A DNA stretch of 64,000 nucleotides from an uncultured archaeon (GTDB taxonomy: Archaea > Iainarchaeota > Iainarchaeia > Iainarchaeales > 1-14-0-10-31-34). The translations under genes were made by a program, and so were the position numbers. How positions within the stretch are numbered: position 1 is the stretch's first letter; the number at the start of each line of letters is the position of its first letter. Of this stretch, positions 10,816-39,104 are shown piece by piece. Location: NCBI GenBank assembly GCA_964608675.1, contig CAZSOZ010000001.1, positions 256,001 through 320,000 on the forward strand, read 5' to 3'. The notes beneath the pieces are model-generated. The model made no database searches. It had not been told where the DNA came from and saw nothing but the letters and a program-made list of their open reading frames with translations.

Positions 10816-10873
10816 ATTATGTAGCCTTTTCATTTTATTTTTAAACCTTTTTTTCTTTTTCTATTATGTTTGT

Positions 10874-11021
10874 TTTCATAAAAATTATGAAACGACTCTT
10901 TTCTTTTTTCCGAAAAAGAAAAGTGCAAGCTGCAATTTAATCCCAAAAGGATTAAGTGCACACAAAAACTGAAAAAGTTTTTGTAGTGCCTAAAAGAAAA
11001 AAGGCACTAGTTCATAAAAAT
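10874..11021. repeat. Array of five abutting hairpins bounded by an 11-bp direct repeat (candidate MITE-like element or structured RNA)
   Basis: Inverted repeats at 10874-10892, 10898-10923, 10931-10960, 10962-10984 and 10984-11009. TTCATAAAAAT occurs at 10875-10885 and 11011-11021. Confidence 0.6.
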
Positions 11022-11041
11022 AATAATTTTTTCAGGGGGAT

Positions 11042-12022: not shown

Positions 12023-12031
12023 GGAAAAAAA

Positions 12032-13240: not shown

Positions 13241-13290
13241 TTTTTTTAAAGCTGAATAATTAATTTTTTTTTCTAAACTTAATTTTTTTT

Positions 13291-13794: not shown

Positions 13795-13859
13795 TCAATC
13801 ACTTTTTAGAAATAAATATTACTGCAGGAATCCTTTTTAATTGAATTTACCTGCTTAGT

Positions 13860-24200: not shown

Positions 24201-25259
24201 AATTCTTTTATGAATTCAGAGTTTTTGTCTCTTAAGTCGTTGGTTGAAGAAAAAATTACAGGACTCAAAGAAACTGTTGCTTTTTTTGATTCAACAGGAT
24301 TTTATTCTGAATCAAATGAATTAAAATCAAAAATTCTGAAAGCTGAATCTGATTTAATCAAAGCTGTTTCTGTTTCTAAAGAAAAAGGAACAGAACTGCT
24401 TCTTTCTGTTAATTCTTTTTTGGAGGAAGTTTCTGACAAAAACCTTGAAGCATTTCTTTTAAACAAAAGAAACTTTGTTTTAGAAAAAACAGCGGGTTCA
24501 AATGAATTAATTGCTTTGCTGAACAGCAAAAAAATTTTTGACTTAAAGAACGCCCTGCTTGAACAAGACACTAATTTTTTGTCTTTTTTTTCAAAAAAAG
24601 ATTATTTTAATTCTGCTCTTTCTTTGAATTTAATGCAGTCTGATTCAAAAAAACTTCTTGAATTAATTTCCAAAGAAATCCAGCTTAAAAAACAAAAATT
24701 GAATGAAAAAAAAATTTTTTTCAAAGAAAAAAAGCAGTTAACTGAAATGCTTTTTTCTTCTCTTGAAAACGCTTTATCTGAAAGCAAATTTTATCTTTCT
24801 CCTATTTCAAAGTCAAGACTTAAATTTTTAAGAAATGAATTTGATTCAATTAATTTTTCTTTTAAGGACAGCAGTTCTCCTGAAAGCCTGCTTTCAGCTG
24901 AATTGCTTGCAGAACAATCAGACAAAGAATTAAATGCAATCCATGAAGAACTTTCTTTTTCTTTGAATAAATTAAAAGAAGACGCAAAAGTTTTCTTGTT
25001 GTCTGCAAAAATTTCAGGAAAAAATATTTCTTCTGCACAAACTCTTTTTGAGGAAGGAAAATACATTGATTCAATTAATGCTTCTTTTTTTTCAGCTGAA
25101 TCCTCTCCAACAGCTTTTGCTTTTCTTTCTTCTTTTGAAGTCCCTTTGCAGGTTTATCCTCTTCTTATTATAATTCTTTTTGTTGCAGGAAAAAAATTTT
25201 TTATTAAAAAAAAGAAGAAAAGAAAGCCTAAAAAGAAACATTTAAAGAGTTTGGAATAA
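21267..25259 (+). CDS. Large (1330 aa) hypothetical protein with an N-terminal lipobox and a C-terminal TM anchor
   Basis: LFSGC lipobox, helical/coiled-coil segments, and a C-terminal TM followed by a poly-Lys tail. Confidence 0.75.
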   Translation: MKLNFLLILILLFLFSGCSEEKLEYKNACLSLTSYSFQEIPECSSQEDCFKEVEKHLFDFKQTFSFESSDKLHSYKNNLASSWLYFNKSLKLVKELNRLCYSDDFSFLPEKTNELVFSLEKAFEFSDKASLDSFSFLLTEKNFLNKQNIELIPEELLFDDFILFNHNLNELSTPEIYKSSGSYVSKYFNASAEFNDFSSKFGFYSLYLNEFTSSDLINFYQKDALDSVKSNKFYVPLMKKTFSSVSSFIFGLNDLKRTVSVLNSIPSNKLFFLYGNFVSPKNSVASEFSLLVKKVSEHKLSLNESNNSLVLEIESDFNEISFKLDELSVSSVSRFDSNITSFLFEELNASFISENKNEIFSAETFVFESRKKLSLLKSKFNELKRKDSFNEISLGKKSSLLKQIKAETLSLKEDIGFFAGAFIDELIVLCSTKTELISSELNQKDFSSFSWEITSLASRTAVKIDLFEDASKEQKIIYCKDTILLKKQLDSALENQEKFLLSSSESLNECISSLEKIFYSKNLSVFVDSFYSLKSMQKNRLPFSYLLDSCSDLKKRITVYLYSYDEEIIQANDFYIKSEKILSNLSFLSKIYPEFFNSVKTTNFISDFDEISLDFSLKKLKPEFFPFSSEKLSLIKKFNQKINSFFSSSFGQFLSFNYSIKSFPLEQAVLGKTFLVKQKIFFPNPLNEPINLEFSFLSPFLSSENKLIHSCIKEITKSKSNSRILVSCFPEEGLLFESDKNLLLSFFDSFPELIEANQNSVLFSKSLKIDSFSQISSLKAVVPLEFNSDNAFAVFNSQKIPVEIKEKNAVFYLEELNSEPLIELFFSVSKPVSFEFSEKSRKKLDENTFLVFFDLQLKNNLAFDFDSIKIFLPLNDSDSILEAKLTDFSSEIKVYSLGKKFFFKTSLNKLESKKFFLEIKIKDFDEYKKSLKNSLLSEISLIEDPVFRKNFQTKINSADSFEELIELNAKLSSFLEEKNSFMNSEFLSLKSLVEEKITGLKETVAFFDSTGFYSESNELKSKILKAESDLIKAVSVSKEKGTELLLSVNSFLEEVSDKNLEAFLLNKRNFVLEKTAGSNELIALLNSKKIFDLKNALLEQDTNFLSFFSKKDYFNSALSLNLMQSDSKKLLELISKEIQLKKQKLNEKKIFFKEKKQLTEMLFSSLENALSESKFYLSPISKSRLKFLRNEFDSINFSFKDSSSPESLLSAELLAEQSDKELNAIHEELSFSLNKLKEDAKVFLLSAKISGKNISSAQTLFEEGKYIDSINASFFSAESSPTAFAFLSSFEVPLQVYPLLIIILFVAGKKFFIKKKKKRKPKKKHLKSLE

Positions 25260-25298: not shown

Positions 25299-26201
25299 GT
25301 GATGCCAGAAAAAAAGGATTTAAAGTACAGTATTATGGATAAAGCTTTGGGAGTAAAGCAGTCTGTTTCTAAATCAATTCCTTCTGTTCAATCCCTTAAA
25401 AAAAAACCTGTTTCAAAATCAAAGCCTGCTCCAAAGCCTGTAAAGAAATCTGTTCAAGAAAAAAACCATAGTTCTTTGATTGGAATTGCAGTTATTTTTT
25501 TGATTGTGGTTGTTGCATTAATTTTTGTTTTGGATGATTCTCTTGATTTAGATTTAGTTGATGCAGGAAAAGAAAATCAGCCTTCTTCTGCTGATGAAAT
25601 TCCTGAAAACCAAGAAGAAATCAAACTTTCTTTTGATGAAAGATACACTGAATGTGCAAGCAAGCCTTTGGTTCAGCATAAAGATGAATGCCTTCAAAAT
25701 CTTGCAGTTGAATTTAACAAAGAATTCTTGTGTGATGAATTAACTAATCTTGATTTAGAGAAATGCAGAAGGCTTGTCTGGAAAGCTAATGCAGTGGTTT
25801 CTTTGGAAATAGAAAAATGCAGTGAGCTTTTAACTGAATTAGATAAAATTGAATGCATTAAAGAAATTGCTTTATTGTCTTCTGATAAAACAATCTGCAG
25901 TAAAATAACTGAAGTGGTTTCTTCTGCTGATTTAACTCAGGTTAATTCATGTTATATTGCTTTGGCAGTTCAGGAAAAAGATTTGTCTGTTTGTGATTTA
26001 ATTGAGGGAAGCATGAAGGACACCTGTAAATTTAATACTGCTGTTGTTATTTCTAATCCTGATTTATGCATTGGATTTGAAGTTCCTACTATAAGAAATG
26101 ACTGTATTGCAAGAATCGCAAAAAACTTGAATGATGTTTCTTTGTGCAACAGAATAAGCAGTTCAATTCAAAAAAATAAGTGCATTAAAGATTTATCTTA
26201 A
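25299..26201 (+). CDS. Membrane-anchored Cys-repeat protein
   Basis: One TM, then about 6-7 repeats of about 25 aa of the form (K/R)D.C...(L/I)A......(L/I)C..(I/L). Confidence 0.75.
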   Translation: MMPEKKDLKYSIMDKALGVKQSVSKSIPSVQSLKKKPVSKSKPAPKPVKKSVQEKNHSSLIGIAVIFLIVVVALIFVLDDSLDLDLVDAGKENQPSSADEIPENQEEIKLSFDERYTECASKPLVQHKDECLQNLAVEFNKEFLCDELTNLDLEKCRRLVWKANAVVSLEIEKCSELLTELDKIECIKEIALLSSDKTICSKITEVVSSADLTQVNSCYIALAVQEKDLSVCDLIEGSMKDTCKFNTAVVISNPDLCIGFEVPTIRNDCIARIAKNLNDVSLCNRISSSIQKNKCIKDLS

Positions 26202-27353
26202 ATATAAATACAAGTAAATTGCTACTCCAAATAAAACAAAAAGCATTCCTGCAATTAATTCCTGTTTTATTTCTTCTTTTTCAAATATTATTTCAGTTTT
26301 TTCGCAGGAAACTTTTTTTCCTTCAAATTCCAGTGTGCATCCTAATTCAAATTTTCCTGCAGTGTTTGATTTAATTTTTGTTTTAAAGTAAACTATTTGT
26401 TTTGGGTGAATTGACGCAAATTTTTTTTCATTTTTTTTTAATTCAATTCCCTTTCCTAAAACAGTTATTTTTGCATTATGCACTGTTTCAAGTGAATTGT
26501 TTATTATCACTATTTCTATTTCGCTTTCTTCTTTTATTTGATTTATTTGTTTTTTCAGCATAATTATTGGTTCAAGTTTTTTTTTGTATTCTTTTGGAAG
26601 TATTTCAGGATAATTTGATTTAATTGTTTTTTCTTCTTTGAATTCATTCAAATAAACTGCTACTGCATTCGGAAGAAGTCTTGTATTTGGGTTTTTCAGC
26701 CTGTAAGTGAATTCCAGTGAAATTTCTTTTCCTGCCTGAATTTCCCCTGAAAACGAACTTTTTCCTTTTATTAATTCAATGTCTTTTCGTTCTTTGTCTC
26801 CGTCAGTTATTTTCACAAAAGTTGATTCATTTCCGTAATTTTTTAAAGTGGTTTTCACGTGTATTTCCTGTCCTACTACTAATTCTTTTGATACAACTTT
26901 TTTTGTAAAACTGCCTTCAGGAAAAAAAGCAGTCTTATAATTTCCTATTATTGAATCATTGTAAACATTTATTTTTGGAATGGAATCAGATGAATTTCCG
27001 CATATTCTGAGTTCATTTTTTGTTTTTAATTCTTCTTTTTTTAGTGTTATTCTTTGAAATTCGTTTCCTGTTCCTGATTCAATAATTGAAATCAGTTTAT
27101 TATTTAATTCAACTGTAATGTTTGCGTCTCCTTTAATGTTTGGAGTAAAAGTATAATGCACTGAAATAATAGTGAATTCCTCTGAATTAAATTCATCATA
27201 AAAAATTATTTTCATGCATTCCTGTGCGTTAGCTTCATGTATTTTAAGTTCTTCTTCATAGCCTATCGAAAAAAAAGTTTTTTCTTTTATTGTTTCTCCG
27301 CTGACTATTCCTGTTAAAAGCACAGCAAGAATTACAAGCATTTTTTTGTTCAT
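26193..27353 (-). CDS. Secreted Ig-like (DUF11/BatD-like) protein with a C-terminal TM anchor
   Basis: Signal peptide, VGQEIHVKTTLKNYG..STFVKITD and LLPNAVAVY segments, and a C-terminal hydrophobic helix. Confidence 0.65.
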   Translation of the reverse strand: MNKKMLVILAVLLTGIVSGETIKEKTFFSIGYEEELKIHEANAQECMKIIFYDEFNSEEFTIISVHYTFTPNIKGDANITVELNNKLISIIESGTGNEFQRITLKKEELKTKNELRICGNSSDSIPKINVYNDSIIGNYKTAFFPEGSFTKKVVSKELVVGQEIHVKTTLKNYGNESTFVKITDGDKERKDIELIKGKSSFSGEIQAGKEISLEFTYRLKNPNTRLLPNAVAVYLNEFKEEKTIKSNYPEILPKEYKKKLEPIIMLKKQINQIKEESEIEIVIINNSLETVHNAKITVLGKGIELKKNEKKFASIHPKQIVYFKTKIKSNTAGKFELGCTLEFEGKKVSCEKTEIIFEKEEIKQELIAGMLFVLFGVAIYLYLYLR

Positions 27354-27823
27354 TTTTTCCCTTTAATTTTTTTAAGTATTTGTTGTATGGAACTCTTTAA
27401 ATTTTTCTCGTTTTTTATTTCAATTATTTTTTTATAGTTTTTTTCTGCTTTTTTTTTGCAGTAATTTGTTTCCTCACAGTAAAGATTGTCCTGAATTTTT
27501 ATTTCAGTATAGCCTCTTTTTCTAAGCCTTTTTTCAAGAATCTTTCTTTTTGTTCTTAAAACAAAAAATAAATCTGTATTTATTTTCATTTCGCATAAAG
27601 TGTGGCCTTCAATTATTATGTTTTCTTTTTTTTTCAGGAATTCATTCATTTTTTTCTGGAATTTTTTTAAGTCTATTTCAACTTCGCTTCCTTTTCTTTT
27701 GCCTGTTTTTGTTTTTAAAGCAAAATCTTTTTCGTTTACTGTTTTCCAGTTTAATTTTTCCTTTAATTTTTCTGCTAAAACCGTTTTTCCTGTTCCAGGA
27801 ATCCCTGTAATTAAAACCTTCAT
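27350..27823 (-). CDS. Archaeal adenylate kinase AK6/Fap7-like P-loop kinase
   Basis: ITGIPGTGKT, IIIEGH and LEKRL.KRGY...KI.DN..CE. Confidence 0.88.
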   Translation of the reverse strand: MKVLITGIPGTGKTVLAEKLKEKLNWKTVNEKDFALKTKTGKRKGSEVEIDLKKFQKKMNEFLKKKENIIIEGHTLCEMKINTDLFFVLRTKRKILEKRLRKRGYTEIKIQDNLYCEETNYCKKKAEKNYKKIIEIKNEKNLKSSIQQILKKIKGKK

Positions 27824-28235
27824 TTTTTCACTTTTATTCTGTTTAATATTCCTCTAAAAAGAGAGCAAACAACTATTGGCATTTTAGTTAATTCAAATTC
27901 TATTGAATTAATTTTTTTTCCGTTTATTTCAACGGCTTTTCCTATTATTTCATTTTTTTTTACAAGTGAATCAAAATGCTTTGAATTGTCTCCTTTAACC
28001 AAAAATTTTTCTTTTTTTCTTTTCAGCATTCTGTGTAATAAAAATTTTTGGTTTCTGTAAAACATTATTATGTCTCCTGTTTTTAGTTTTTCTGATTCAA
28101 TTAACTTGATTTTTATTCTTGAATTTTCGTTGATTAAAGGAAGCATGCTTGTCCCTTTTGTTTGTACTTCAATTGTTTTTCCTTTATTGTTTTTTTTAAA
28201 CAAATCAACTGCCTGAATAAATGTTTTTTCTTTCA
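27820..28235 (-). CDS. S24/S26-family peptidase lacking an N-terminal TM anchor
   Basis: GTSMLPLI (catalytic Ser), GDIIMF, LHRML and VKGDN. Likely start MKEKTF at 28235. Confidence 0.85.
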
Positions 28236-28237
28236 TT

Positions 28238-29149
28238 TCATTCACAACTGAATTTTCTCTGCCTTTCAGAAACAAAATTGAGATTTCCAAGTTTTTCATT
28301 AAATGAAAGAAGGATATGCGGATTTTCTGCTTGCACGTAATAAATTTCTCTTAATTTTTTTTCTACTAACAGATTTATTTTGTATGCTTCCCTTCCTTCA
28401 AAGAAAATTTTTTTATCGAACTCAAATTTTATTTCTTTGTTTGGAACCATGAATTCTTTTGTTTCAATAAATTCATCGAAATTGAATTGTCCTCCTTCAT
28501 AATATAAGAAAAACAAGGGAAGCACAATATCTCTTTCAGTTAAATCAAAAAAATTTTTTTCTTTTAATCCTTTTTCAAGTGCGTTTTTACAGGATTCTGA
28601 ATAATTTAATTTAATTACTTTTGAGTTCTTGATCAGGATTTTTCCAAAAATTCTTTCTTTTGGAAACGAAACAGCAATAACTCCTTCAATAAAGTTTTCA
28701 TTTTTGTCCAAAACAAAAAAATTATAGTCTACGCTGAAATTAGAGTCAATTTTTTCATACAAAAAGTAATATTCCTGTCCTTTTTTGAATTCAATTTTCT
28801 TTAAAGGATTTATTTTTATTTCAAATTCTTTTGTTTTTCCGTCTGAAGGCATTATTTTCAAGAGAAAATTCATTCCTGTGATTATACACGGAAAAGAAAT
28901 TTCGTTTAATCCTTTTCTTAAATCAAAATAATTAACGCATTTTAATTCTTTTTCATTAAATACTTCTATTCTGGCTTTTTTTAATTCTTTTTGGGAAACA
29001 ATATTCAATTCAACTATTTTTTTTTCAAAGTCAAATGAATAACTATTTAATTCCAGTTCATAGTCATTTAATTTATTTTCTGGTTTTTTCTGAATGCATC
29101 CAAAAGCCAGCAAAAAAACAACCAATAAAAATAATGCTTTTTTTTTCAT
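28238..29149 (-). CDS. Hypothetical lipoprotein within the RiPP-like cluster
   Basis: MKKKALFLLVVFLLAFGC lipobox. Confidence 0.7.
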   Translation of the reverse strand: MKKKALFLLVVFLLAFGCIQKKPENKLNDYELELNSYSFDFEKKIVELNIVSQKELKKARIEVFNEKELKCVNYFDLRKGLNEISFPCIITGMNFLLKIMPSDGKTKEFEIKINPLKKIEFKKGQEYYFLYEKIDSNFSVDYNFFVLDKNENFIEGVIAVSFPKERIFGKILIKNSKVIKLNYSESCKNALEKGLKEKNFFDLTERDIVLPLFFLYYEGGQFNFDEFIETKEFMVPNKEIKFEFDKKIFFEGREAYKINLLVEKKLREIYYVQAENPHILLSFNEKLGNLNFVSERQRKFSCE

Positions 29150-29227
29150 TAAAAGAAATAGTGTTCTTTCTCTTTTTTAATATAACATTTACTAACTAAT
29201 TTGTTTTTTTGAAGTTAATTTAGCCAA

Positions 29228-29335
29228 TTACAAAGTAAAGCCGGTTTGTGGAGAAGCAGATATAAACATACTGTCATCCGGAGTAAAAACAATTTTTGTG
29301 TTTAATTTTTTTATTTCAGGCTTTTCGTATTTCAT
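29228..29335 (-). CDS. Putative RiPP precursor peptide (35 aa) MKYEKPEIKKLNTKIVFTPDDSMFISASPQTGFTL
   Basis: Hand-translated ATG 29335 to TAA 29228, below the ORF-track cutoff. The N-terminal YxxPxI is the RRE/PqqD-binding leader motif type. It lies between the radical SAM gene and the lipoprotein-peptidase genes. Confidence 0.72.
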   Translation of the reverse strand: MKYEKPEIKKLNTKIVFTPDDSMFISASPQTGFTL

Positions 29336-29393
29336 ACAATAAAAAAAACTTCATTACTATATAAATAATTATCTGTAGTTATTTTTTTTTGAT

Positions 29394-30470
29394 TTGATGG
29401 AAAAAATAAATAATTCAATTTATCACACGGATTTAATTTATACAAATAAATGCAATATTAGGTGCAGGCACTGCATTAATGACAGCTGTAAAGAAAAAAT
29501 AGGAAAACTTGGCTGCAACAAAGTTATTTCTATTTTAAATGAAATGCCAAAATTTAATGTTAAATATCTAGGAATAACAGGCGGAGAATCACTTATTTAT
29601 GAAAAAGAAATTCTTGAAATTATTTCTGAAGCAAAAAAACTTGGAATAGAATCTTCTTTAGTTTCAAATGGATTGTGGGCTTATAACAAAAAAAACACAA
29701 AAAAAGTGCTTTCAAAATTAACTAAAGCAGGGCTAAACAGGCTTAATGTAAGCTGTGATGAATTTCATTTAGAGCACGTTCCTATTCAGAATATTTTGAA
29801 TGTTTCCAGCGAAGCCAGAAAAATAAAAGACTTGGATTTTTTTCTTCGTTTTACTCAAACAAAAAACTATTCTGTTATAGATTTCATTTCAGAAAACAAA
29901 AAATTTTTTAAAAACGATTCTTCAAAAGATCCCTTAGGATTTTTTGTTCAACTGCTTTTGCCTTTAGGAAGGTCTTCAGTTAATGTTCCTGAACAGGATT
30001 ATTTTTTCTTTAAAAAATCAATTAAAACAAGATCTTGTAGTTTTAGAAGCAGTCCTTCAATTGATTTTAAAGGAACTTTTTCCATTTGCTGTTTAGGGTC
30101 TGATGCAGAAAACACGGCATTTCAGTTAGGAAACATTTATTCTGATGATATAAATGGTTTATTTGAAGCATACAAAAACAGCATTTTTGTTTTTTATCTT
30201 AAAGCAAAAGGACCTTATTTTATTGCAAAACTTGCAGAAAAAAATAATTTAAAAAAAATCAAGAAAACAAAAAAGTCTTTTGAGAAAAATATTGGAATAT
30301 GTGATTACTGCATACTTACTTTGAGTCAATATAAAAAAGAAGATATTTTAGAAATTTTGGAAGCTCATTTAAAGAAAAACAGAAAGGAAATGTTTAAGTG
30401 TTCAAAAGAAAATGTAAAGAATGCAGCAAAAAACTGGAAAGAATTGCAGACAAAACATTATTGGAAATAA
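29394..30470 (+). CDS. Radical SAM enzyme with a C-terminal auxiliary-cluster (twitch-like) domain, EpeE/YydG-like
   Basis: CNIRCRHC, ITGGE, SNGLW, VSCDEFH, LGR, and C-terminal C...ICC...GICDYC. Confidence 0.88.
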   Translation: MMEKINNSIYHTDLIYTNKCNIRCRHCINDSCKEKIGKLGCNKVISILNEMPKFNVKYLGITGGESLIYEKEILEIISEAKKLGIESSLVSNGLWAYNKKNTKKVLSKLTKAGLNRLNVSCDEFHLEHVPIQNILNVSSEARKIKDLDFFLRFTQTKNYSVIDFISENKKFFKNDSSKDPLGFFVQLLLPLGRSSVNVPEQDYFFFKKSIKTRSCSFRSSPSIDFKGTFSICCLGSDAENTAFQLGNIYSDDINGLFEAYKNSIFVFYLKAKGPYFIAKLAEKNNLKKIKKTKKSFEKNIGICDYCILTLSQYKKEDILEILEAHLKKNRKEMFKCSKENVKNAAKNWKELQTKHYWK

Positions 30471-30474
30471 TTAA

Positions 30475-30729
30475 TTATTTTTTAATCAGTTTAAAGGATT
30501 TTAGTTTTTTTATTAATTCTTTTGTATGACTTAAAGCTTTTTTTTCAGGTATCCCATATTTTTTTGCAAGTTTTAAAGCAATTTTTTTTTCATTATTTTT
30601 TCCGTTAATTTTTTTCCAGACAAAAGTTCCTGTTTTATTTAATACAAAAAAATCATTGTTTTCAGGATTAAAAACTATTGTTTCTCCGTCGACTTCTCTG
30701 GTTTCAACTTTCTTTGTTTTTTTAATCAT
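30475..30729 (-). CDS. PqqD-family RiPP recognition element (standalone RRE)
   Basis: REVDGETIVFNPENNDFFVLNKTGTFVWKKING......IA..LA.KY............I..L....LI. Likely start ATG 30729. Confidence 0.92.
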   Translation of the reverse strand: MIKKTKKVETREVDGETIVFNPENNDFFVLNKTGTFVWKKINGKNNEKKIALKLAKKYGIPEKKALSHTKELIKKLKSFKLIKK

Positions 30730-30771
30730 TTTTTCACTTTTTTGTTTTATATTATTAAAGAGCATTTGTTT

Positions 30772-31659
30772 TTAATTCAATTCTTTTTCAAGTTTTTCTT
30801 CAATTTTTTCCATTACTTTTTGTTGTATTGGAAGACGCAGTAAAAATGCAGGAACTTTTTGCATTAAATCAGAATACAAGCCAAGCCTTTCTTTTGCTTT
30901 AATTTTCGTGAAATTCAAGGGCCCATAATAATCATTCATAATTAATTTTGCGGTTCCCTCGAATTTTGAGAGTTTTTCTAGCTTTAATTTTTTTGCCTGA
31001 ATTATAAAAAAAACTGCTTTTAATTCAACTGGTTCACTGCTTTTTTTTTCCAGAATAAAAGGAACTGAATTAAAAGGACAGCTTTGAATAAAAAATTTTT
31101 TTCTTTTTTTAAACAAAAAATTGAGGTCTTCTCCTAAAATTAATCCTTGTTCGCACATTCTTGCAGTAGTGGTTTTTCCTGCTGTTGGAGCCCCGCAAAA
31201 AAGATATCCTTTATTTTTTTTTCTTACTGCTGATGAATGAATTAAACCGCATTCAAAATCATTAAAGTAAACTGCAATGCATTTTGAAAGATTGTCAATA
31301 AAAAAATTCCAAAAAAAAGGAGTGTTTGCATGTATTTCAATTTTTCCTTTGTTTTTGTTTAAATCAAGCCATCCAAAAAGATGCTCTTTTCCTTTTTCGC
31401 TTTTTTTTCCCTTGAATTTAATTAAGTTTTTTTTTTCATTAAACAATATTTTTTCATAAAAATTTCTTCTGTTTTTCAGTATTTGTTCATTTAAATCCAA
31501 GTTTCCTTTATAAAAAAAATACTCTAATTTTAAATCAGGTTTTTTGTTTGAAGCAAATTCTTTTTGAAATAAATTAAGGTAGTTTGAAATTTTTTTGTTG
31601 TTTGTTTTAATTGAAACAGTTTTTCCTGCAAAATAAAATTTAGATTCAAGCATTTTCAA
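30772..31659 (-). CDS. HPr kinase-like P-loop kinase (peptide-modifying type)
   Basis: LIHSSAV....GYLFCGAPTAGKTT...LGED and PVELKAVFFI.Q. Confidence 0.8.
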   Translation of the reverse strand: MKMLESKFYFAGKTVSIKTNNKKISNYLNLFQKEFASNKKPDLKLEYFFYKGNLDLNEQILKNRRNFYEKILFNEKKNLIKFKGKKSEKGKEHLFGWLDLNKNKGKIEIHANTPFFWNFFIDNLSKCIAVYFNDFECGLIHSSAVRKKNKGYLFCGAPTAGKTTTARMCEQGLILGEDLNFLFKKRKKFFIQSCPFNSVPFILEKKSSEPVELKAVFFIIQAKKLKLEKLSKFEGTAKLIMNDYYGPLNFTKIKAKERLGLYSDLMQKVPAFLLRLPIQQKVMEKIEEKLEKELN

Positions 31660-31693
31660 TCAACTTAAATATAGAAACTTCTTTAATTTTAAA

Positions 31694-32773
31694 TTAGTTT
31701 ACTATTGAATGCCTTATTTTCCAGAAAAGCGGAAGAATAAATGAAAAAAAAACAACTTTTATTTTTTTCTTTAAGCCGTCTGTCCAATGCAATCTGTTTT
31801 TTGTGTTTTGATAATTATAAAAAAAAGCGTTTTTCTTTTTTATCAGTTTTTTAATTGTTTTTTTCCTTAAATAATTCAGTTTGCGTTTATCTGAAATTTT
31901 TTTTAGTTTTTTTATTCCTTTGATTTCTTTTCCGAATAATTCTTTAAGCAGTTCATTAAAATAAACCAGTTCTTCTACTGCATTATATTTCACTGCTTTT
32001 TCTTTGAGTTTTTTTTCGTTTAATCCTTTTGAATTAATTTCATTTACGTCAACCAAAGATTCAAATATTTTGTTAAATGGATCGTGATAAACACTGCTTA
32101 AAACAGAAATAATTACGTTGTCTTCTTTGCAGGGAATCCTTAAATTATTTATTTTAGTGGAATCTCTCCATATTTCATTTAAGTTTATTTGAAATGAATT
32201 AACCGGAAAAAACAAGCTTTTGTGGGGTTCTGCAATATATGTAAAACCGTTTTCTTTTTTTTTCATTAAAGGATAATGCTGTAAGTTTTCATAAAACCAA
32301 TTAAAAAACACTTTTTTGGTTTTTTTTGATTTTTCCCAGAAGTCTGCTGAATCAGAAAAATATTTTTTTTTCTTTAAAATCCTTTTTGTTTTATTGTAGT
32401 TTTTTTCTTTAATTAAAAAATCAAAGTCTGCTGAAACTCTTAACATTGTTTTGCTGTAAATCGAATAATTCAAAGCAGTTCCTTTTATTGCAATAAAATT
32501 TATTCTTTTTTTTTGGAATTCTTCTGCAAGACAGTCAATTTCTTTTTTATACAAGAAATTTTTTAATAAAATTTTTTTGTTTATTAAATTTAATTCTTTT
32601 GCTGTTTTCGGAGCAAGTTTTTTGTTTATTTTTTTTGAAATAAATCCTGTTATTCTGTGATAAACACATAATTCCAAGAATTTTTTTTGATTAATTCCTT
32701 TATAATCTTTTTTTTTGGTTTTTTCCTGTATTAATTTAATTAACAGTTTTTCTTCTGTTTTCATTTGAATCAT
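31694..32773 (-). CDS. Nucleotidyltransferase family protein (NTP_transf_5-like)
   Basis: HRI, IAIKGTAL...Y....LRVSADFDFLI and E.H. Confidence 0.85.
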   Translation of the reverse strand: MIQMKTEEKLLIKLIQEKTKKKDYKGINQKKFLELCVYHRITGFISKKINKKLAPKTAKELNLINKKILLKNFLYKKEIDCLAEEFQKKRINFIAIKGTALNYSIYSKTMLRVSADFDFLIKEKNYNKTKRILKKKKYFSDSADFWEKSKKTKKVFFNWFYENLQHYPLMKKKENGFTYIAEPHKSLFFPVNSFQINLNEIWRDSTKINNLRIPCKEDNVIISVLSSVYHDPFNKIFESLVDVNEINSKGLNEKKLKEKAVKYNAVEELVYFNELLKELFGKEIKGIKKLKKISDKRKLNYLRKKTIKKLIKKKNAFFYNYQNTKNRLHWTDGLKKKIKVVFFSFILPLFWKIRHSIVN

Positions 32774-32833
32774 TTTTATTATATTTTGGTTCTACTTTAA
32801 ATTAAATAACAAAGAAATAAAAAAAGTGATTTA

Positions 32834-33973
32834 ATGAAAATTTTGTTTGTTTCCCCGTATTTTTTTCCGTTTGTAGGAGGTGCAGAAAATCATCTTCTTA
32901 GAATCTGCAGTGAATTAAAGGAATTAAATCATGAAATAATTGTTTTTACTTCAACTAAAAATTCGCAGTCAAACAAAAAAATGAAAATTATTGTTTCTCC
33001 TCCTTTGTTCACTTATTCTAATACTCCTTTTAATTTTTGGGAAAACCAAATAAATAAAGTGATTGAAGAAGAAAAACCCGATGTTGTTGTCGGCTCTCTT
33101 TCCACTCCATTTATGGCTGATTTTTCTGCAGTAATCACAGAAAAAAAAAGGATTCCTTTTTTTTTAATGTACTATAATGATTTTATTCCAAAAAACTTTT
33201 TTGAAAAAGTTTTTCTTGAATTTTACCGGTTTTTTTTTATGAACAAAACCCTTAATTCAGCAGACAAAATTATTGTTCTTTCTGAGTATTATGCAAAAAA
33301 TTCTTCTGTTTTAAATCCTTTTTCAAAGAAAATTTCTGTGGTTTCTCCTTTTTTGCGTTTAAGGGAATTTAATTCTTTAAATGAATACAAAAAAACTTTT
33401 CCTGAAAACAAAGTGGTTTTGTTTGTCGGCGCATTAAACAAAGGCCAGAATTACAAAGGATTAAATTATTTAATTAAAGCAGTTTCTTTGGTTAAAAAAA
33501 TTTTTCCTGAAATAAAACTGGTTGTAGTTGGAAAAGGAAACAACATGAATTATTTCAGAAAACTGGCAGAAAAAAAAGGAGTTCAGTCAAATGTTTTTTT
33601 TGCCGGAGAAATTTCTCAAAAAAAACTTTTGTCTTTTTATTCTGAATGCAAAACTCTTGTTCTGCCTTCTGTTAATGATTCAGAAGGATTCGGCTTGGTT
33701 TTTTTAGAAGCAATGGCTTTCTCCAAACCTGTAATTGGAACCACTGCAGGAGGAATTCCCGCAATAGTTAAACATAATTTTAATGGTTTTTTAGTTGAAC
33801 CAAAAAACGAAGCAAAATTAAGCAAAGCAATTGAATTCATTTTAGAAAATGAAAAAAAAGAAAAAAAAATGGGGGAAAACGGCTTTAATTATCTGAAAAA
33901 ATTTTCTTCTAAAAAAAGCATTAATAAATTAATTAAATTGTTTGAGAGTGCATTAAATGAAAAAAAACAATAA
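32834..33973 (+). CDS. Glycosyltransferase family 4
   Basis: YFFPFVGGAE, LFVGAL...YKG and EGFGLVFLEAMA..KPVI.T..GG. Confidence 0.93.
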   Translation: MKILFVSPYFFPFVGGAENHLLRICSELKELNHEIIVFTSTKNSQSNKKMKIIVSPPLFTYSNTPFNFWENQINKVIEEEKPDVVVGSLSTPFMADFSAVITEKKRIPFFLMYYNDFIPKNFFEKVFLEFYRFFFMNKTLNSADKIIVLSEYYAKNSSVLNPFSKKISVVSPFLRLREFNSLNEYKKTFPENKVVLFVGALNKGQNYKGLNYLIKAVSLVKKIFPEIKLVVVGKGNNMNYFRKLAEKKGVQSNVFFAGEISQKKLLSFYSECKTLVLPSVNDSEGFGLVFLEAMAFSKPVIGTTAGGIPAIVKHNFNGFLVEPKNEAKLSKAIEFILENEKKEKKMGENGFNYLKKFSSKKSINKLIKLFESALNEKKQ

Positions 33974-35552
33974 AATTTTGATTTTATTAATTTTGTTTTG
34001 TTTGTTTGCAGTTCTTGTTATTCAGTTAACTTCCCCAACCTCTCTTTACAGAGATCCGTGGATGTTCAGGCATTTGGGGGCAGCAGAACTTGTTTTGAAA
34101 ACCGGCAATTATGTTCTTTCTGATGAATTTTTAGTTAAATTCAATTTTTTTGGAGAAGATTTTTTTCTTAACAATAACTGGTTTTTTTATTTTATTCCTG
34201 TTTTATCAGGAGTAATTTTTCATTTTTTGTCAGGCTTGAATATTTATTTTGTTTTTAATTCCTTTTATTTTTTGATTTTAATTCTGGCTTTATCTCATTT
34301 TATTTTGTTTAAAAAAATTTTTGGCCGCAACCGGATTGCTTTGGGGCTGTCTTTAATTTTTGTTTTGTTTCCTTTTGAGCCACTTTACTATAAGATTTCA
34401 GTTCATGGCTGGATTTTTGTAAGAATTTTTTCTGCGATAGCAATGTATTTTTTTGCAAGATTTTTGCAGGATTTTTCATTTAAATCAAAAAACTTTTTGT
34501 TTCTTTTATTTTTTTCTTTTCTGGGAATTTATTCTGACAAAAGCGCTTTTGTTTTAGTTCTGCTTCCAGTTATCTTGTTTTTTCTTTTTTATTTTTTCTT
34601 TGAAAGAAAAAAAGCTTCCAGTAAAACATCTTTGAATTATTTTTTTCTGGTTTTTTTGGTTTTGGTTGTTCTGTCTATTTTTTCTGTTTTTTATCAGCTT
34701 TTCTGGAGTTTTTTAGGAACCCTTTATAATTTCTTAAATTTTAATTTTATTCCTTCTTTTATTAAACCAAGCCTTCCTTTTTCTGAATTTTATTTAGCAA
34801 AAAACTTTTCTTATATTTTAATAAGATACCTTATTCCTTTTTTTGCGGTTTTTTCTCTTATTTTATTGAATTTCAAAAAAATAAAAGAACTTGCTTTAAA
34901 AAACAAAATAATTAAGGCATTTATTTTTTCTCAGGCACTATTTTATTTTTTTGCGGGTTTTTTTTCTTTGTTTTCTTTTGCTTTTGTTTCCAGCAGAGGA
35001 GCTTCAATGCTTTTCTTGTTTTTTTCTTTGCTGGCTTTTTTGGGGTTGTCTCAAATGAAAAAAAGTCTGCTAAAATTTTTTTTGATTTCATTTTTTTTCT
35101 TTTTTGTTTTAATTCTTCCTTTTCTTTATTTTACTCAAACTCCGCAGTTTCAGTATGAACAATTCAACGAAAAGCATGTTTCTTCTTTGGATTGGGTGAA
35201 CGAAAATTTATCTGAAACGGCAATTGTTTATTCAGATGTAAAAATGGCTAAAGCGGTTTCACTGAAAACCAGTTTGTTGGGATTTAACCCTAAATTTGAA
35301 TTTGGTTTTGTTATGGAAAACTATATTATGCCAGTTTATTTTACTGATGACTTAAATAAAGTTTTATTTTCATTTAAAGAAAAAGGAATAACTCATTTGC
35401 TTTTAACAAAGGAAATGAATTCTTTGATGGTTCAGCCTGCAAACGAGTTAATGAAGCCTGCAACTCATCTCAAAAAATTTGATTTTTCTGAAAACTTTAA
35501 CAAAGTTTTTGAAAACAAGCAGGCAGGAATTTACGAAATAAAATACAATTAA
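33957..35552 (+). CDS. Polytopic membrane protein, possibly a GT-C-fold glycosyltransferase
   Basis: About 12 TM segments, DPW..H in the first loop, and a soluble C-terminal domain (LDWV.EN...VYSD...KGITHL...F.KVFEN...IYEI). Confidence 0.6.
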   Translation: MKKNNKILILLILFCLFAVLVIQLTSPTSLYRDPWMFRHLGAAELVLKTGNYVLSDEFLVKFNFFGEDFFLNNNWFFYFIPVLSGVIFHFLSGLNIYFVFNSFYFLILILALSHFILFKKIFGRNRIALGLSLIFVLFPFEPLYYKISVHGWIFVRIFSAIAMYFFARFLQDFSFKSKNFLFLLFFSFLGIYSDKSAFVLVLLPVILFFLFYFFFERKKASSKTSLNYFFLVFLVLVVLSIFSVFYQLFWSFLGTLYNFLNFNFIPSFIKPSLPFSEFYLAKNFSYILIRYLIPFFAVFSLILLNFKKIKELALKNKIIKAFIFSQALFYFFAGFFSLFSFAFVSSRGASMLFLFFSLLAFLGLSQMKKSLLKFFLISFFFFFVLILPFLYFTQTPQFQYEQFNEKHVSSLDWVNENLSETAIVYSDVKMAKAVSLKTSLLGFNPKFEFGFVMENYIMPVYFTDDLNKVLFSFKEKGITHLLLTKEMNSLMVQPANELMKPATHLKKFDFSENFNKVFENKQAGIYEIKYN

Positions 35553-35864: not shown

Positions 35865-38800
35865 TTACTTTAATCTGACTGCATCTAAATCTCTTATTGC
35901 GTTTGAATTAATTCTGAATTTGTTTGAAACATATCTTGCGAATTCTATTGCAGTGTCTTTTTCTCCGTGGTTTACAATTATTTTTTTGGGTTTTGGATTT
36001 AAATTTCTTATATAGTTTACTAATTGGTTTCTGTCTGAGTGCCCTGAAAACCCTTCAACGGTTTCCACTCTCATGTTAATTGGCAGTTCTCTTGTTTTTC
36101 CATTATCGCTTATTGGAGTTTTTTTTAGTCCTTTTTGTATTCTGTTTCCTAATGATCCTTCTCCCTGATATCCGACAAACACCATTGTGTTTTTTGGGTT
36201 TTCTGCCATTTTTTGAAAGTATTGAACTGAAGGTCCTCCTGTAAGCATTCCTGAAGAAGCAATAATTATTGCTTCTTTTTCTTCTAAAATTTTGTCTCTT
36301 TCTTTTGCGTTTGCTGTCTGAAATAATTCTGAAGTAAAAGGAGAATCATTTTGGAGTACTCTTCTTTGAACTCCTTTTCTTAAGTATTCTGGATAAGCTG
36401 TATGAATTGCGCTTGCTTCTTTTGTCATTCCGTCAACAAACACTTTTCCGTCAAGCATTCCTTTTCTATAATATTCTTCTATTACCAGCATTATTTCTTG
36501 GGCTCTTCCAACAGAAAAAACCGGAATCAAAGTGTTTCCTCCTTTATGCATTGTTTCTTTTAAGATTCTGATTAATTGTTCTTCTGCTTTGTTTCTGTCC
36601 TGCTGTATGTCGTCTTTTCCTCCGTAAGTTGATTCAATAATCAAAGTTTCTAGTCTTGGATAATTAATGTCTACATTATTAAAGAGTCTTGTAAAACCAA
36701 ATTTAATGTCTCCGCTGTATACTAGATTGTGTGCTCCTTCTCCTATATGAAAATGAACTGAAGCACTTCCTAAAATATGTGATGCATTATGTAAAGTTAT
36801 TCTCATGTCAGGAGCAATATCTGTTACTTCTCTGTATTCACGTGTAATGCAGTATTTTAGCATTTCTTTTACGTCTCTTTCTGTGTATGGAGGTTCTTTT
36901 CCTTCTTTAATTAATACATCAATATAATCAAACTGCAGTAATGCCATTAAATCTCTTGTAGGTTTAGTATTATGCAAACAAATTGGAGCATTCCCTCCAA
37001 CAAAATTTTCATCTTCATCTACTGAAAAGTCATAAACATGGCCATTGCTTGCTTCAACTTTCTTTATTTTTGTAATAGGCAAGAAACTTAGATCAGATTC
37101 AGCCAATTTTGACAGGTTTTCTTGAATTGAATATGTGCTTCCCTTGGTGTTTACTATCCACCCTTTATCAATCAACGCTTTTAGTCTTTCTTTTGTAACA
37201 CTTTTCCTTTCTTTGAGTCTGTGATAATACCATTCTTTGTTGAAGTTTGTTTCTTTAAGGGGAATTATTTCAGTCGACTTTTTATCTAGTCTTTTTGTTC
37301 CTCCAAAATCACTTAAGTTCAAGGTTATTCTATGTGCAATATTTTTTGTTTTTGCTGAGACAACATGTCTTGAAAATAAGGTATAATTGATTCCAAGTTG
37401 GGTTAGAACATATGAAATATCAGAAACTAATCTTTCACTTACACTTATAGCGTGTGCAGTTTTGTTTAACAAATTTACTGTTCCGTCTCCCTTAAAATAT
37501 GCATCAACAAATTGCATTTTAAGTTCATTTGATACATTGAAAACTATTTCTGGGACATGTTTACTTGTTGCTTTTTTATATTCTTTGAAAAAGTAGTTTT
37601 TAAACAAATCCCTTACTACTATTGAATTAACTGAAACTGAAATAGTATTTCTATTTTTAACTGCTTCCTTTGCTTCTAGACCGAAAACTGTTTTAATGCA
37701 GTTCTTTAGTTCTTTAACTATTTCTTCTTCTTTTAATCCAAAAGTAAACCTAACAGCCCTTTTTTCAATGTGCCCTTCTGAAGCAAAGTAACCCAAAATT
37801 CTTAAGAGTTCTTTGTTGACCTCTAATACTTGGGGGATGCCTTTGCTTTGTTTTGTTTTAATTTTTCCATTTTTGAATAAATATTTGTTTTCATTCATTT
37901 TTCCCTTTAAGTTAATTAACTTAGTTTCTTGTGTTGGGATTTTTTGAGGCACTACTAATTGGTCACCTTCAGAAAGCTCGTTGACTTTAATTTCTTTTAT
38001 TTTTCCGTTTTTCAATACAAAAACACTGTGGCTTCCTGTCACTTTAACTTTTCTCCCTGTTTTTGCAGTGATTTCAAATAAGTCATCATCAACTGAATGT
38101 CTTATAACTTCTTTTACTTTTTTAAATCTGACTTTATAGTCTTTTTTAGAAAAACAAGGCACTTCAATATTTCTTTCAGGTTTCGCTGCAATAAATTCAT
38201 TGTAAGGTAATTCTTCTTTTTCTTTTGATTCATCAATTATTGAATCAATTACTTTTCCAATTTTTTCAGTTTTAATTACGCCATCTTCTTTAATCATTAC
38301 TTGTTCTTCATAATCTACGCTGCAATAAACAGGCCCTCGATAACCCATTTTAAATAATAATGGAATTAAACCTGAATGATCTAAATGCGCGTGGCTTATT
38401 ACTACTCCATCTAGCTGGTCTAATGGAAACCTTATTGCTTCAAGGTAAGGGTATGGTTGTTCAATATTTGCTACGTCTACTCCCACATCTAATAACACTT
38501 TTGTTTCAGGTGTTTCAATCATTAAACAGCTTTTTCCTACTTCCCTGAATCCACCTAATGCAGTTAATCTAACCCAGCCATTGTTTTTGTTTTTTTCTCT
38601 GTAAATTTTTTTTGCTGTTTCATTTAAAATTTTTTTTCTTTCTGAACTGTATTTATGAAGATGGTGCCTTATTCCTTTGAGTATTTCTGATTCGCTTGTA
38701 GGGCTTCTTAAAATATTAGGCGTCCAGCCTGTCTTTAAAATGATTTCTTTTGATGTTTCTCCGCCTTTTCCTATTACTAATCCGGGTTTTATTGCATCAA

Positions 38801-39104
38801 TTACTACTTCGCTGAAAGCAGGATTAAAGTAAATTTCTTTTATTTCTGCGCTTTCAGGAACCAATTCCTGAATTACTTTTTTTGCATGCATTTCGTCTGA
38901 CAAAAGGCTTTTGTCTGTTCTGATATTTACTCTTTTTTTTAATTCAAATGCAATTTTTGCAACAAAGTTTTCGTTTTCAAAAAAAGCTTTTGGATTTCTT
39001 GTATAAATTGCTACTTCAGGGCCTTCCATTTCAATATTTGTTATTTGAGTTTCTTTTGGAAGGTTTGACTGAATTATTTCTTTTACTTCTTTTAATGCAT
39101 CCAT
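35865..39104 (-). CDS. fttA: Beta-CASP ribonuclease aCPSF1/FttA (KH + MBL + beta-CASP) containing an intein
   Basis: KPGLVIGKGG KH motif, LGGFREVG, SHAHLDH, HILGS, YSGD and FSGHSD. It is next to the proteasome beta gene and is 628 aa after intein removal. Confidence 0.95.
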   Translation of the reverse strand: MDALKEVKEIIQSNLPKETQITNIEMEGPEVAIYTRNPKAFFENENFVAKIAFELKKRVNIRTDKSLLSDEMHAKKVIQELVPESAEIKEIYFNPAFSEVVIDAIKPGLVIGKGGETSKEIILKTGWTPNILRSPTSESEILKGIRHHLHKYSSERKKILNETAKKIYREKNKNNGWVRLTALGGFREVGKSCLMIETPETKVLLDVGVDVANIEQPYPYLEAIRFPLDQLDGVVISHAHLDHSGLIPLLFKMGYRGPVYCSVDYEEQVMIKEDGVIKTEKIGKVIDSIIDESKEKEELPYNEFIAAKPERNIEVPCFSKKDYKVRFKKVKEVIRHSVDDDLFEITAKTGRKVKVTGSHSVFVLKNGKIKEIKVNELSEGDQLVVPQKIPTQETKLINLKGKMNENKYLFKNGKIKTKQSKGIPQVLEVNKELLRILGYFASEGHIEKRAVRFTFGLKEEEIVKELKNCIKTVFGLEAKEAVKNRNTISVSVNSIVVRDLFKNYFFKEYKKATSKHVPEIVFNVSNELKMQFVDAYFKGDGTVNLLNKTAHAISVSERLVSDISYVLTQLGINYTLFSRHVVSAKTKNIAHRITLNLSDFGGTKRLDKKSTEIIPLKETNFNKEWYYHRLKERKSVTKERLKALIDKGWIVNTKGSTYSIQENLSKLAESDLSFLPITKIKKVEASNGHVYDFSVDEDENFVGGNAPICLHNTKPTRDLMALLQFDYIDVLIKEGKEPPYTERDVKEMLKYCITREYREVTDIAPDMRITLHNASHILGSASVHFHIGEGAHNLVYSGDIKFGFTRLFNNVDINYPRLETLIIESTYGGKDDIQQDRNKAEEQLIRILKETMHKGGNTLIPVFSVGRAQEIMLVIEEYYRKGMLDGKVFVDGMTKEASAIHTAYPEYLRKGVQRRVLQNDSPFTSELFQTANAKERDKILEEKEAIIIASSGMLTGGPSVQYFQKMAENPKNTMVFVGYQGEGSLGNRIQKGLKKTPISDNGKTRELPINMRVETVEGFSGHSDRNQLVNYIRNLNPKPKKIIVNHGEKDTAIEFARYVSNKFRINSNAIRDLDAVRLK
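36969..38321 (-). mobile_element. Intein (451 aa) with a LAGLIDADG homing endonuclease
   Basis: Splits the conserved GPVYC/TKPTRDL. It starts SVDYEE and has block B VTGSHSVF, endonuclease motifs LGYFASEG and FVDAYFKGDG, block F VYDFSV, and ends LHN before Thr(+1). Confidence 0.95.

Follow-up and report, generated by a model that had tools for sequence, protein, structure and literature searches.

Linear Polyphosphorylated Peptides (LPPs), encoded by lppA-K-B-S-D-N of Paenibacillus alginolyticus (Popov et al., Nat Commun 2026, PMC13381572), belong to the RiPPs (ribosomally made peptides that are modified post-translationally). The accessible part of that article describes a core of an 'archaeal-type' peptidase LppS resembling signal peptidase I (SpI) and SipW, a RiPP recognition element (RRE) LppB, an HprK-like kinase LppK, an NTP transferase LppN and an MsbA-like pump, with clusters often located in capsule loci rich in glycosyltransferases. 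LPP precursors carry an N-terminal YxxPxVLxHQxIxFETxxS motif with Tyr at position -16. In a heterologous host LppK places up to four phosphates on core Ser3, LppS (catalytic S29, H68 and D93) cuts after Thr-1 only in the presence of LppB, and deletion of lppN causes no change. LPPs are called restricted to Bacillota, and their final product and role are undescribed in the same text. Here we report a locus at positions 27820-32773 of a 64,000-nucleotide stretch of DNA (the window; contig CAZSOZ010000001.1, positions 256,001 to 320,000, assembly GCA_964608675.1) from an uncultured Iainarchaeota (DPANN) archaeon. The locus is probably an LPP-type linear RiPP cluster with an RRE, a kinase and an S26 leader peptidase.

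Two other described systems share components with the locus. The phosphorylated lasso peptides paeninodin and pseudomycoidin have a cyclase C, a cysteine protease B2 and a C-terminal Ser target; as reported in the available portion of PMC9266682, PsmK phosphorylates Ser and PsmN adds a hexose to the phosphate. Epipeptides, products of EpeXEPAB/YydFGHIJ of Bacillus subtilis, are described as Bacillota-restricted in the sections of PMC13012085 that could be consulted. There, Cys223 of the radical S-adenosylmethionine (SAM) enzyme EpeE returns hydrogen to the C-alpha radical.

Gene content and comparison with described systems

A reading of the window from its letters alone (the sequence-only reading) had placed seven genes at 27820-32773 and proposed an RRE-dependent, non-lasso peptide as their product. 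Pfam and NCBIfam profile searches of window proteins, together with a structure model of the kinase, confirmed all seven at those positions and in the claimed families. Four are encoded on the minus strand around a precursor gene of the same strand: a nucleotidyltransferase-fold NTP_transf_5 protein resembling LppN and PsmN (31694-32773; PF14907, 4.6e-23), an HPr-kinase-like peptide kinase resembling LppK and PadeK (30772-31659; ScmC, 1.8e-4), a stand-alone PqqD-type RRE (30475-30765; PF05402, 4.6e-13; lasso_PqqD_Bac, 3.5e-9; ScmD also matched) and a candidate LppS-like leader peptidase, an S24/S26 enzyme free of transmembrane (TM) segments (27820-28236, with the longest open reading frame (ORF) extending to 28299; PF00717, 4.4e-8; TIGR02228, archaeal signal peptidase I, 6.6e-11; SipW, 6.8e-5). 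A lipobox protein (28238-29149, minus strand) matches no Pfam or NCBIfam family. The candidate precursor peptide, a conserved small ORF of 35 aa (29228-29335, minus strand), consists of a leader MKYEKPEIKKLNTKIVFT and a predicted core PDDSMFISASPQTGFTL. The remaining gene, on the plus strand, encodes a YydG/EpeE-like radical SAM enzyme (29394-30470; TIGR04078, 6.7e-31, 108 bits). It is convergent with the PqqD, kinase and NTP_transf_5 genes and divergent from the 35-codon ORF over a 58-bp spacer; the S26 and PqqD genes lie 2.2 kb apart. For the peptidase, the family and the TM-less character stood, but the start did not: orthologues show Met22 (28236), giving 138 aa. The RRE probably starts at Met13 (30729).

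The locus shares with LPP clusters a kinase, a discrete RRE, an S26 peptidase, an NTP transferase and a YxxP precursor, and a cyclase is missing in both. Further likenesses are neighboring glycosyltransferase genes, a small residue at the 15th position past the leader Tyr, and peptidase residues Ser30, His68 and Asp89 against S29, H68 and D93 of LppS. The differences are the archaeal host, the added YydG-like radical SAM enzyme and lipoprotein, and the missing MsbA-like exporter. Thus the system has a precedent in the LPP family of Bacillota, and what is new is the archaeal host, the epimerase-like radical SAM enzyme, the conserved lipoprotein and the absence of an exporter. In the part of PMC13381572 that was available, 'radical SAM' occurs 0 times and 'archaea' only within 'archaeal-type' and in two references; its supplement may list members outside Bacillota.

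With paeninodin and pseudomycoidin, as described in the consulted part of PMC9266682, the locus has in common an RRE, an HprK-like kinase and a nucleotidyltransferase homologue, but it lacks cyclase C and B2, and the C-terminal residue of its peptides varies. With the epipeptide system, as far as PMC13012085 was accessible, it shares a radical SAM enzyme homologous over nearly its full length, including the radical SAM motif, the auxiliary cysteines and a CC pair; an EpeX-like precursor, the membrane protease EpeP and the ABC transporter EpeAB are not among the archaeal cluster genes, which add an RRE, a kinase and an NTP transferase. SynChlorMet-type cassettes (ScmC/ScmD/ScmE/ScmF) resemble it in combining an HprK-like protein, PqqD and a radical SAM enzyme acting on a small peptide, and differ in their radical SAM/SPASM enzymes and Cys-containing cores. 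Within the literature accessible to our search we found no paper on SynChlorMet-type cassettes, on a YydG-like radical SAM enzyme in lasso or LPP clusters, or on the archaeal cluster.

Conservation in three genera

Three genera within a single Iainarchaeota (DPANN) family, f1, have the cluster genes conserved together; genomes of this family are designated G000-G008 (genus g1 including G001, G002, G003 and G005; g2, G006; g3, G007). The source assembly is 1.21 Mb in 53 contigs and 94% complete. The sequencing runs listed were four DNA runs from a single study of microbial mats, one being a possible source, and no RNA run. The genes for the S26 peptidase, lipoprotein, radical SAM enzyme, RRE, kinase and NTP_transf_5 protein are syntenic in the four named g1 genomes. 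The whole set recurs in the four loci long enough to show it (L014, L015, L016 and L018) and in G002, where it is split over two contigs. In G006 the block from S26 to NTP_transf_5 is kept although the outer neighbors differ, and in G007 part of the block lies on a contig edge and the visible part is kept; contig ends cut the loci of G004 and G007. Orthologues of the radical SAM enzyme have 40-43% identity in four of the five other genomes of the genus and 33% in the second genus, and NTP_transf_5 orthologues occur in five further genomes (28-54% identity). Among 61 genomes of the order, the kinase was found in 11 and NTP_transf_5 in 11, and both occur with the radical SAM orthologue only in family f1 (G000-G007). 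The cluster is present in eight of the nine f1 genomes searched; no cluster genes were found in G008. The genes therefore do occur together elsewhere, and the suggestion in the sequence-only reading that such a pathway would be unexpected in a reduced DPANN-like genome is softened.

The precursor peptides

A small ORF of 29-35 codons is present in all six loci that hold the spacer between the lipoprotein and radical SAM genes. It was also found in four of the five closest metagenome contigs, one copy being identical to that of G001; none was found in metagenome contig L111. In G006 the small ORF is inverted with its position unchanged. The nine distinct homologues are 29-42 aa long, have invariant Tyr, Lys and Pro residues and share the leader consensus M-x-Y-[EK]-K-P-x-[IL]-[KRT]-[KV]-[LIV]. 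Over the 12 positions from Y to Y+11 the pairwise identity averages 0.62, versus 0.13 in the cores. The C-terminal parts are unrelated between precursors and rich in Ser, Thr, Ala, Gly, Val and Ile. Predicted cores contain no Cys in nine of nine and few aromatic residues, and six of nine have no Asp or Glu; at their C termini the nine precursors end in L, T, T, A, S, V, T, R and L. RiPP precursors are typically recognized by a conserved leader attached to a freely varying core. Because the small ORF has this organization, we regard it as a true precursor, in line with the sequence-only reading, which had singled out a single YxxP micro-ORF.

We placed the cleavage site by comparison with LppA, where Tyr is at -16, so that Y+15 corresponds to Thr-1. 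Position Y+15 is T, A, S or G in all nine precursors and is the sole all-small column among 12 complete ones. As small residues make up 0.59 of that region, the chance of a pre-named column being all small is about 0.009, for rows that are related by descent. A TATA-like element (TTTAAA/TTTATA) lies 26-43 nt upstream of the precursor ORF in nine of nine cases, a weak signal in DNA of about 74% A+T. A sigma-70/terminator scan returned 14 sites versus 26.6 expected; its model is not suited to an archaeon and the result is uninformative.

RRE, kinase and NTP_transf_5 protein

The PqqD gene is single copy in the genome. A seven-row profile of the archaeal RREs searched against the PDB gave LppB as the best match (9x8z_B, 2.6e-7), followed closely by the lasso RREs PbaB1 (1.5e-6) and TbiB1 (3.3e-6). 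In LppB, Asn33 holds the kink at the leader Pro and Asp70 binds the Tyr hydroxyl (PMC13381572, as far as accessible). Asn33 aligns with an invariant Asn of the archaeal RREs, and Asp70 with an Asp in six of seven rows and with His in the RRE of the window. Prediction of the RRE-precursor complex scored 0.60 versus 0.02 for the best control, with at least 77% of contacts common to the runs and partner pLDDT (predicted local distance difference test) of at least 53. Of 80 solved complexes, 58 reached the mark used, as did two of 110 mismatched pairs; at scores up to 0.60 the passes were only seven of the 80 and both mismatched pairs. We count the prediction as weak support. The pass may also stem from likeness to complexes already solved.

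The kinase is barely detectable by sequence, ScmC (1.8e-4) being its only match, while the G006 orthologue matches HprK_rel_A at 8.9e-8. In a 14-row alignment, His141, Gly161, Lys162 and Thr164 are invariant and the P-loop reads GxxGxGK[ST]. An AlphaFold2 model (pLDDT 83.7) has the fold of PEP carboxykinase and HPr kinase (1oen, PEP carboxykinase, 2.9e-9; 1knx_A, HPr kinase, 1e-5). The translation of the NTP_transf_5 gene shows a G..x..D-F-D motif, and a profile that we built for the family matches the gene at the LppN position of Bacilli operons with the order kinase, RRE, S26, NTP_transf_5 (described below) at 1e-13 to 1e-30. Both proteins were compared with genes of these operons; their likeness to LppK and LppN themselves is by description.

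The radical SAM enzyme

The best family of the radical SAM enzyme is the YydG epimerase family TIGR04078 by a wide margin. The best PDB chains are YydG (8ai1/8ai6, 1e-13) over residues 17-304, followed by MoaA at 1e-4 over the radical SAM core only. Eight cysteines (20, 24, 27, 215, 232, 233, 303 and 306) are invariant in six orthologues. They comprise the CX3CX2C motif, four presumed ligands of a single auxiliary cluster in a twitch-like C-terminal part, and a CC pair. Cys232-Cys233 aligns with the CC pair of YydG; its identification with Cys222/223 presupposes that the solved chain bears a tag of 25 residues. Because the cluster motif begins at residue 20 and the enzyme has no N-terminal RRE domain of its own, it would depend on the stand-alone RRE. 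Sactipeptide, ranthipeptide and cyclophane chemistry were set aside, since predicted cores without Cys and with so few aromatics lack the usual thioether and cyclophane partners.

Epimerization is favored by the YydG likeness, the invariant CC pair and cores that are free of Cys, poor in aromatics and rich in Val, Ile, Ala and Thr. Against it, the score of 108 bits falls short of the 300-bit YydG equivalog cut-off. Furthermore, in a tree of 75 rows (ORFs of 250-480 aa, E<=1e-18, identical rows dropped) the archaeal enzymes form a separate deep clade in an unresolved polytomy with Methanosarcinales, Bacillota and bacterial kinase/NTP_transf_5-linked clades. The chemistry may therefore differ from that of YydG. 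There is an appreciable minority chance that the LPP-like cluster is as described and its radical enzyme makes another change in the core, such as C-H functionalization, a C-C or C-O link, or dehydrogenation. Score and tree both leave room for this, and radical chemistry varies among kindred cassettes, which use ScmE-like enzymes in a Bacilli locus (L219) and in an archaeon of another family (G020), and an ApyD-like B12-binding radical SAM enzyme in G006 and G007. Full-length likeness is nonetheless to YydG only, and the invariant CC pair and the composition of the cores speak for epimerization.

The B12-binding radical SAM genes lie between kinase and NTP_transf_5 (L018 11347-12726 in G006, 459 aa; L019 1644-2987 in G007, 447 aa); their best family is the RiPP enzyme ApyD (1.6e-45). 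In G002 (L017 8600-10947; L020) there are two tandem copies of the YydG-like gene, and a stop-interrupted remnant of a second precursor that has no YxxP part.

Relatives of the enzyme were found in 76 non-Iainarchaeal loci, with PqqD beside the radical SAM gene in 20, a kinase in 17 and NTP_transf_5 in 16; an S26 or lipoprotein gene was found in 0 of the 76. Hosts of the loci combining radical SAM enzyme, kinase, RRE and NTP_transf_5 are Acidobacteriaceae, Bryobacteraceae, Methylocystis, Methylococcus, Verrucomicrobiota, Sphingomonas and a metagenome-assembled genome of Gloeobacteraceae. These clusters bear the same four enzyme families as the archaeal locus beside a YxxP precursor with a C-terminal part rich in Ser, Thr, Val and Ile. 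They differ from it in their lasso leaders, in having lasso B2 in 16 and a lasso cyclase in eight of the 20 PqqD-linked loci, and in lacking the S26 and lipoprotein genes. Leader model NF033521 scored over its cut-off in two of four bacterial lasso-type precursors tested. Such lasso-type clusters with the YydG-like enzyme, kinase, RRE, NTP_transf_5 and B2 are those of L027, L030, L032, L038, L050, L052, L057 and L069 and of seven Acidobacteriaceae loci (L036, L039, L041, L043, L053, L054 and L056), the latter having B2 and no cyclase within the locus. Descent of the archaeal enzyme from the bacterial lasso-linked clade was considered and is unsupported by the polytomy.

Candidate leader peptidase, lipoprotein and export

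Conserved residues of the S26 peptidase are Ser30 (Cys in one of six rows), His68, Asp83 and Asp89, and no hydrophobic anchor precedes Ser30. As a second, membrane-anchored signal peptidase of 272 aa with a TM segment is encoded elsewhere in the genome, the cluster enzyme is an extra paralogue. A word-based homologue search returned only the protein itself and one relative (45% identity), which is named S26 family signal peptidase and comes from a Micrarchaeota archaeon. A library-wide profile search gave 1,754 proteins at E<=1e-10, mostly of 130-200 aa.

A profile of six archaeal S26 proteins matched in 64 of 399 Bacilli-class genomes at E<=1e-10. Among the best 30 Bacilli loci (3.3 kb each), a kinase, RRE or NTP_transf_5 gene lay within 1.5 kb in 14, as judged with profiles built from archaeal and proteobacterial genes. 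Enlarged loci showed the order kinase, RRE, S26, NTP_transf_5 in 12 of 12; five hold six YxxP peptides, and one has an MsbA-like ABC gene between S26 and NTP_transf_5. The sequence-only reading had assigned leader removal to the S26 peptidase. This has an experimental precedent in LppS/LppB of Bacillota (PMC13381572, accessible part) and is extended to the archaeal enzyme by analogy. Among the Bacilli operons, L219 (G160:C1:430500-444500) has an ScmE-like radical SAM/SPASM gene directly upstream and two YxxP precursors, each beside a signal-peptide protein of about 820 aa, and in L221 a lipobox protein of 508 aa separates S26 from the precursor.

The lipoprotein gene adjoins the S26 gene in the second genus (G006) as well. 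Gly17-Cys18 is invariant in seven rows, as are two further cysteines. An AlphaFold2 model (pLDDT 86.1) has an Ig-like sandwich and, after it, a domain resembling an open beta-barrel; Foldseek gave no match for it at E<=1e-3. By VIA-align, residues 28-114 match Ig-like sandwiches (for example 6byc_A; Z 9.7, rmsd 2.5, 82 aligned), and residues 119-303 match vitellogenin (9enr_A; Z 9.1, rmsd 4.1, 159 aligned), a putative lipoprotein (4fvs_A; Z 8.9, rmsd 3.9, 138 aligned) and MucB (6jau_A; Z 8.2, rmsd 5.1, 142 aligned), all in the middling range. The middling fold matches are to lipid- or ligand-carrying proteins. A CARDB cluster (0.86) is an Atlas look-alike of the lipoprotein and serves as a lead only.

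It is improbable that the S26 enzyme instead serves the lipoprotein or some other secreted protein as its dedicated signal peptidase, in the manner of SipW with TasA/TapA, and that another protease cuts the leader. Its family is that of signal peptidase I, and in every locus, that of G006 among them, its gene stands directly downstream of the one for the lipoprotein. However, a lipobox protein would not be a substrate of signal peptidase I, and the enzyme lacks the hydrophobic N-terminal anchor of the other signal peptidase of this genome. The SipW precedent is mentioned in the accessible part of PMC13381572, but same-size homologues occur in the Bacilli operons, and a peptidase of this type cleaves the precursor according to the same source.

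Glycosylation genes and the lasso question

Beyond NTP_transf_5 lie a GT4 (family 4) glycosyltransferase gene (32834-33973, plus strand; Glycos_transf_1, 1.1e-45) and a gene for a 531-aa polytopic membrane protein without family match (33957-35552, plus strand), both of uncertain membership in the cluster. The pair also adjoins NTP_transf_5 in the genus of G007, and in G006 its place is taken by a methyltransferase, a GT2 (family 2) glycosyltransferase, a radical SAM enzyme and a DegT aminotransferase. Glycosylation genes thus adjoin NTP_transf_5 in three genera, and in DNA of 74-75% A+T short ORFs are common. On these grounds the locus might be no peptide pathway at all, the kinase, NTP transferase and radical SAM enzyme working with the neighboring genes for glycans or the cell surface, and the small ORF arising as a frame by chance. 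We consider this very improbable. Nine versions of the ORF keep Tyr, Lys and Pro invariant and its position is fixed even when inverted, and we know of no role for a stand-alone RRE outside peptide pathways. In the tested LPP system the same four families of enzyme have a YxxP peptide as their substrate (PMC13381572, in the text available).

The sequence-only reading had noted the lack of a lasso cyclase and B2 in the cluster, and had deduced a non-lasso product. The first observation extends to the whole 94%-complete genome: PF13471 (Transglut_core3, lasso B2) is absent at E<=0.1, and the sole Asn-synthase homologue (PF00733), 135 kb away, scores 215 bits as AsnB versus 59 as a lasso cyclase. 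Together with the six of nine cores that lack an acidic residue, where closure of a lasso ring takes Asp or Glu at position 7-9, this led us to reject a lasso structure. A true lasso system whose cyclase and B2 lie at other sites or in a stretch missing from the 53-contig assembly is barely credible, for although the closest bacterial relatives of the gene set lie in lasso-type clusters, the archaeal genome has just the AsnB-like homologue, its predicted cores mostly lack a ring acceptor and an S26 peptidase is conserved instead.

G020 (L187, G020:C9:142000-161900, approximately 5878-15385), a related archaeon belonging to a different family, has a cassette of kinase, two PqqD proteins, radical SAM/SPASM enzyme, NTP_transf_5 and ABC transporter. 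Its peptide has a KYEKPAI leader and a core with three Cys, and a lasso-type B2 scores 45 bits against a cut-off of 33; no cyclase and no S26 peptidase were seen in this cassette. Taken with the other loci, the YxxP leader, RRE, kinase and NTP transferase form a module. Its partner protease is either B2 or S26, a cyclase may be present or absent, and the radical enzyme differs from case to case.

Flanking features

An adenylate-kinase-like gene at 27350-27823 (best family PRK03839, putative kinase) overlaps the S26 stop. It was not counted as part of the cluster, being missing from the G006 block. In G002 it is fused with the S26 gene in a single 296-codon ORF. To the left of the cluster are three conserved surface-type proteins without family: a 1330-aa lipobox protein (21267-25259, plus strand), a 300-aa Cys-rich protein with one TM segment (25299-26201, plus strand) and a 386-aa protein with weak Ig-like matches (26193-27353, minus strand). 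The lowest G+C of the window, 0.249-0.259 versus 0.26-0.35 elsewhere, is at 28000-34000, the region of the cluster. To the right, a KH/beta-CASP (CPSF-like) gene (35865-39104, minus strand) encodes 1079 aa, of which residues 1-303 and 642-1079 are contiguous in the G001, G003 and G005 orthologues; the copy in the window therefore carries an insertion of about 340-440 aa. The insertion starts with Cys after GPVY and ends with HN followed by Thr, and is probably an intein with a homing endonuclease.

Discussion

The proposal of an RRE-dependent non-lasso peptide was supported overall, and every testable part of it held. Building on the observed gene content, conservation, homology and motifs, we propose the following chemistry by analogy. 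The stand-alone RRE would very probably bind the 29-42-aa precursor through its Y-x-K-P-x-[IL] leader. It would then likely present the precursor to the HprK-like kinase for phosphorylation of core Ser or Thr residues, possibly several times. Presentation to the radical SAM enzyme has about an even chance of leading to abstraction of a C-alpha hydrogen and return of a hydrogen from Cys233, converting some L-residues of the Val/Ile/Ala/Thr type to D. The TM-less S26 peptidase is the probable enzyme of leader removal, and the predicted cut 15 residues past Tyr, behind a small residue, could equally well be right or wrong in its exact position. Somewhat more doubtfully, the NTP_transf_5 protein would extend the phosphate by a further group, perhaps a sugar that the neighboring glycosyltransferase genes provide. 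More speculatively still, the lipoprotein might act on the product outside the cell as a binder or carrier, or in protection against it. Our grading of the locus as a probable LPP-type cluster covers that core claim and not all of these steps jointly.

Several observations weigh against this interpretation, in addition to the score and phylogeny of the radical SAM enzyme. The archaeal precursors are much shorter than those of LPPs. Past YxxPx[IL] their leader lacks the remainder of the LPP motif (HQxIxFET), there is no fixed Ser at core position 3, and the cleavage site placed by comparison with LppA puts Pro at +1 in the peptide of the window itself. None of six archaeal precursors matched any NCBIfam leader model, even at E<=10. 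The precursors found in Bacilli-class operons (YxxPx[IV]E[IV][IV]EF..DSIA) also deviate from the published LPP logo. One S26 homologue, in metagenome contig L108 (4409-4828), has Cys at the nucleophile position (GKCM versus G[TKN]SM). The S26 tree, which took 23 of the 30 Bacilli loci (three without an S26 ORF match and four with ORFs >260 aa were dropped), unites the six archaeal and all 14 operon-linked Bacilli peptidases only at an SH-aLRT (approximate likelihood ratio test) value of 85. LPP clusters have an MsbA-like exporter, and here PF00664 is absent from the 94%-complete genome and PF00005 (ABC ATPase) from the window. As the neighborhood is wholly syntenic inside genus g1, only G006 and G007 inform on the boundaries of the cluster. 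Finally, the S26, RRE and kinase genes look truncated or frameshifted in G001 (L015), and the NTP_transf_5 gene of G005 is split by stops, which could reflect assembly error or decay; contig L108, with a precursor identical to that of G001, has intact S26 and PqqD genes.

In its fullest form, which we put forward only tentatively, the proposal is that a DPANN archaeon makes a short linear peptide combining D-residues formed by a radical SAM enzyme, (poly)phosphorylation and a phosphate-linked sugar or nucleotide, a trio not yet seen together, with the leader cut by a cytoplasmic signal-peptidase-like enzyme and a surface lipoprotein in place of an exporter. If this is true, the core of RRE, SpI-like peptidase, kinase and NTP transferase is an inter-domain module and not an invention of Bacillota, archaea may be where the 'archaeal-type' leader peptidase was recruited, and the product is a candidate mediator of contact between an episymbiont and its host or mat community.

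The archaeal version extends the LPP family, described in 2026 as Bacillota-only, across domains. Its very short precursors and six tightly conserved genes provide a simpler system for finding the end product. The YydG-like enzyme links epipeptides with phosphorylated lasso and LPP peptides, families thought to be separate. The cluster also points to the bacterial lasso-type clusters with the same YydG-like enzyme, of which we found no description in the literature accessible to us. Retention of the cluster in three genera with 1.2-Mb genomes suggests that it is important for the DPANN lifestyle.

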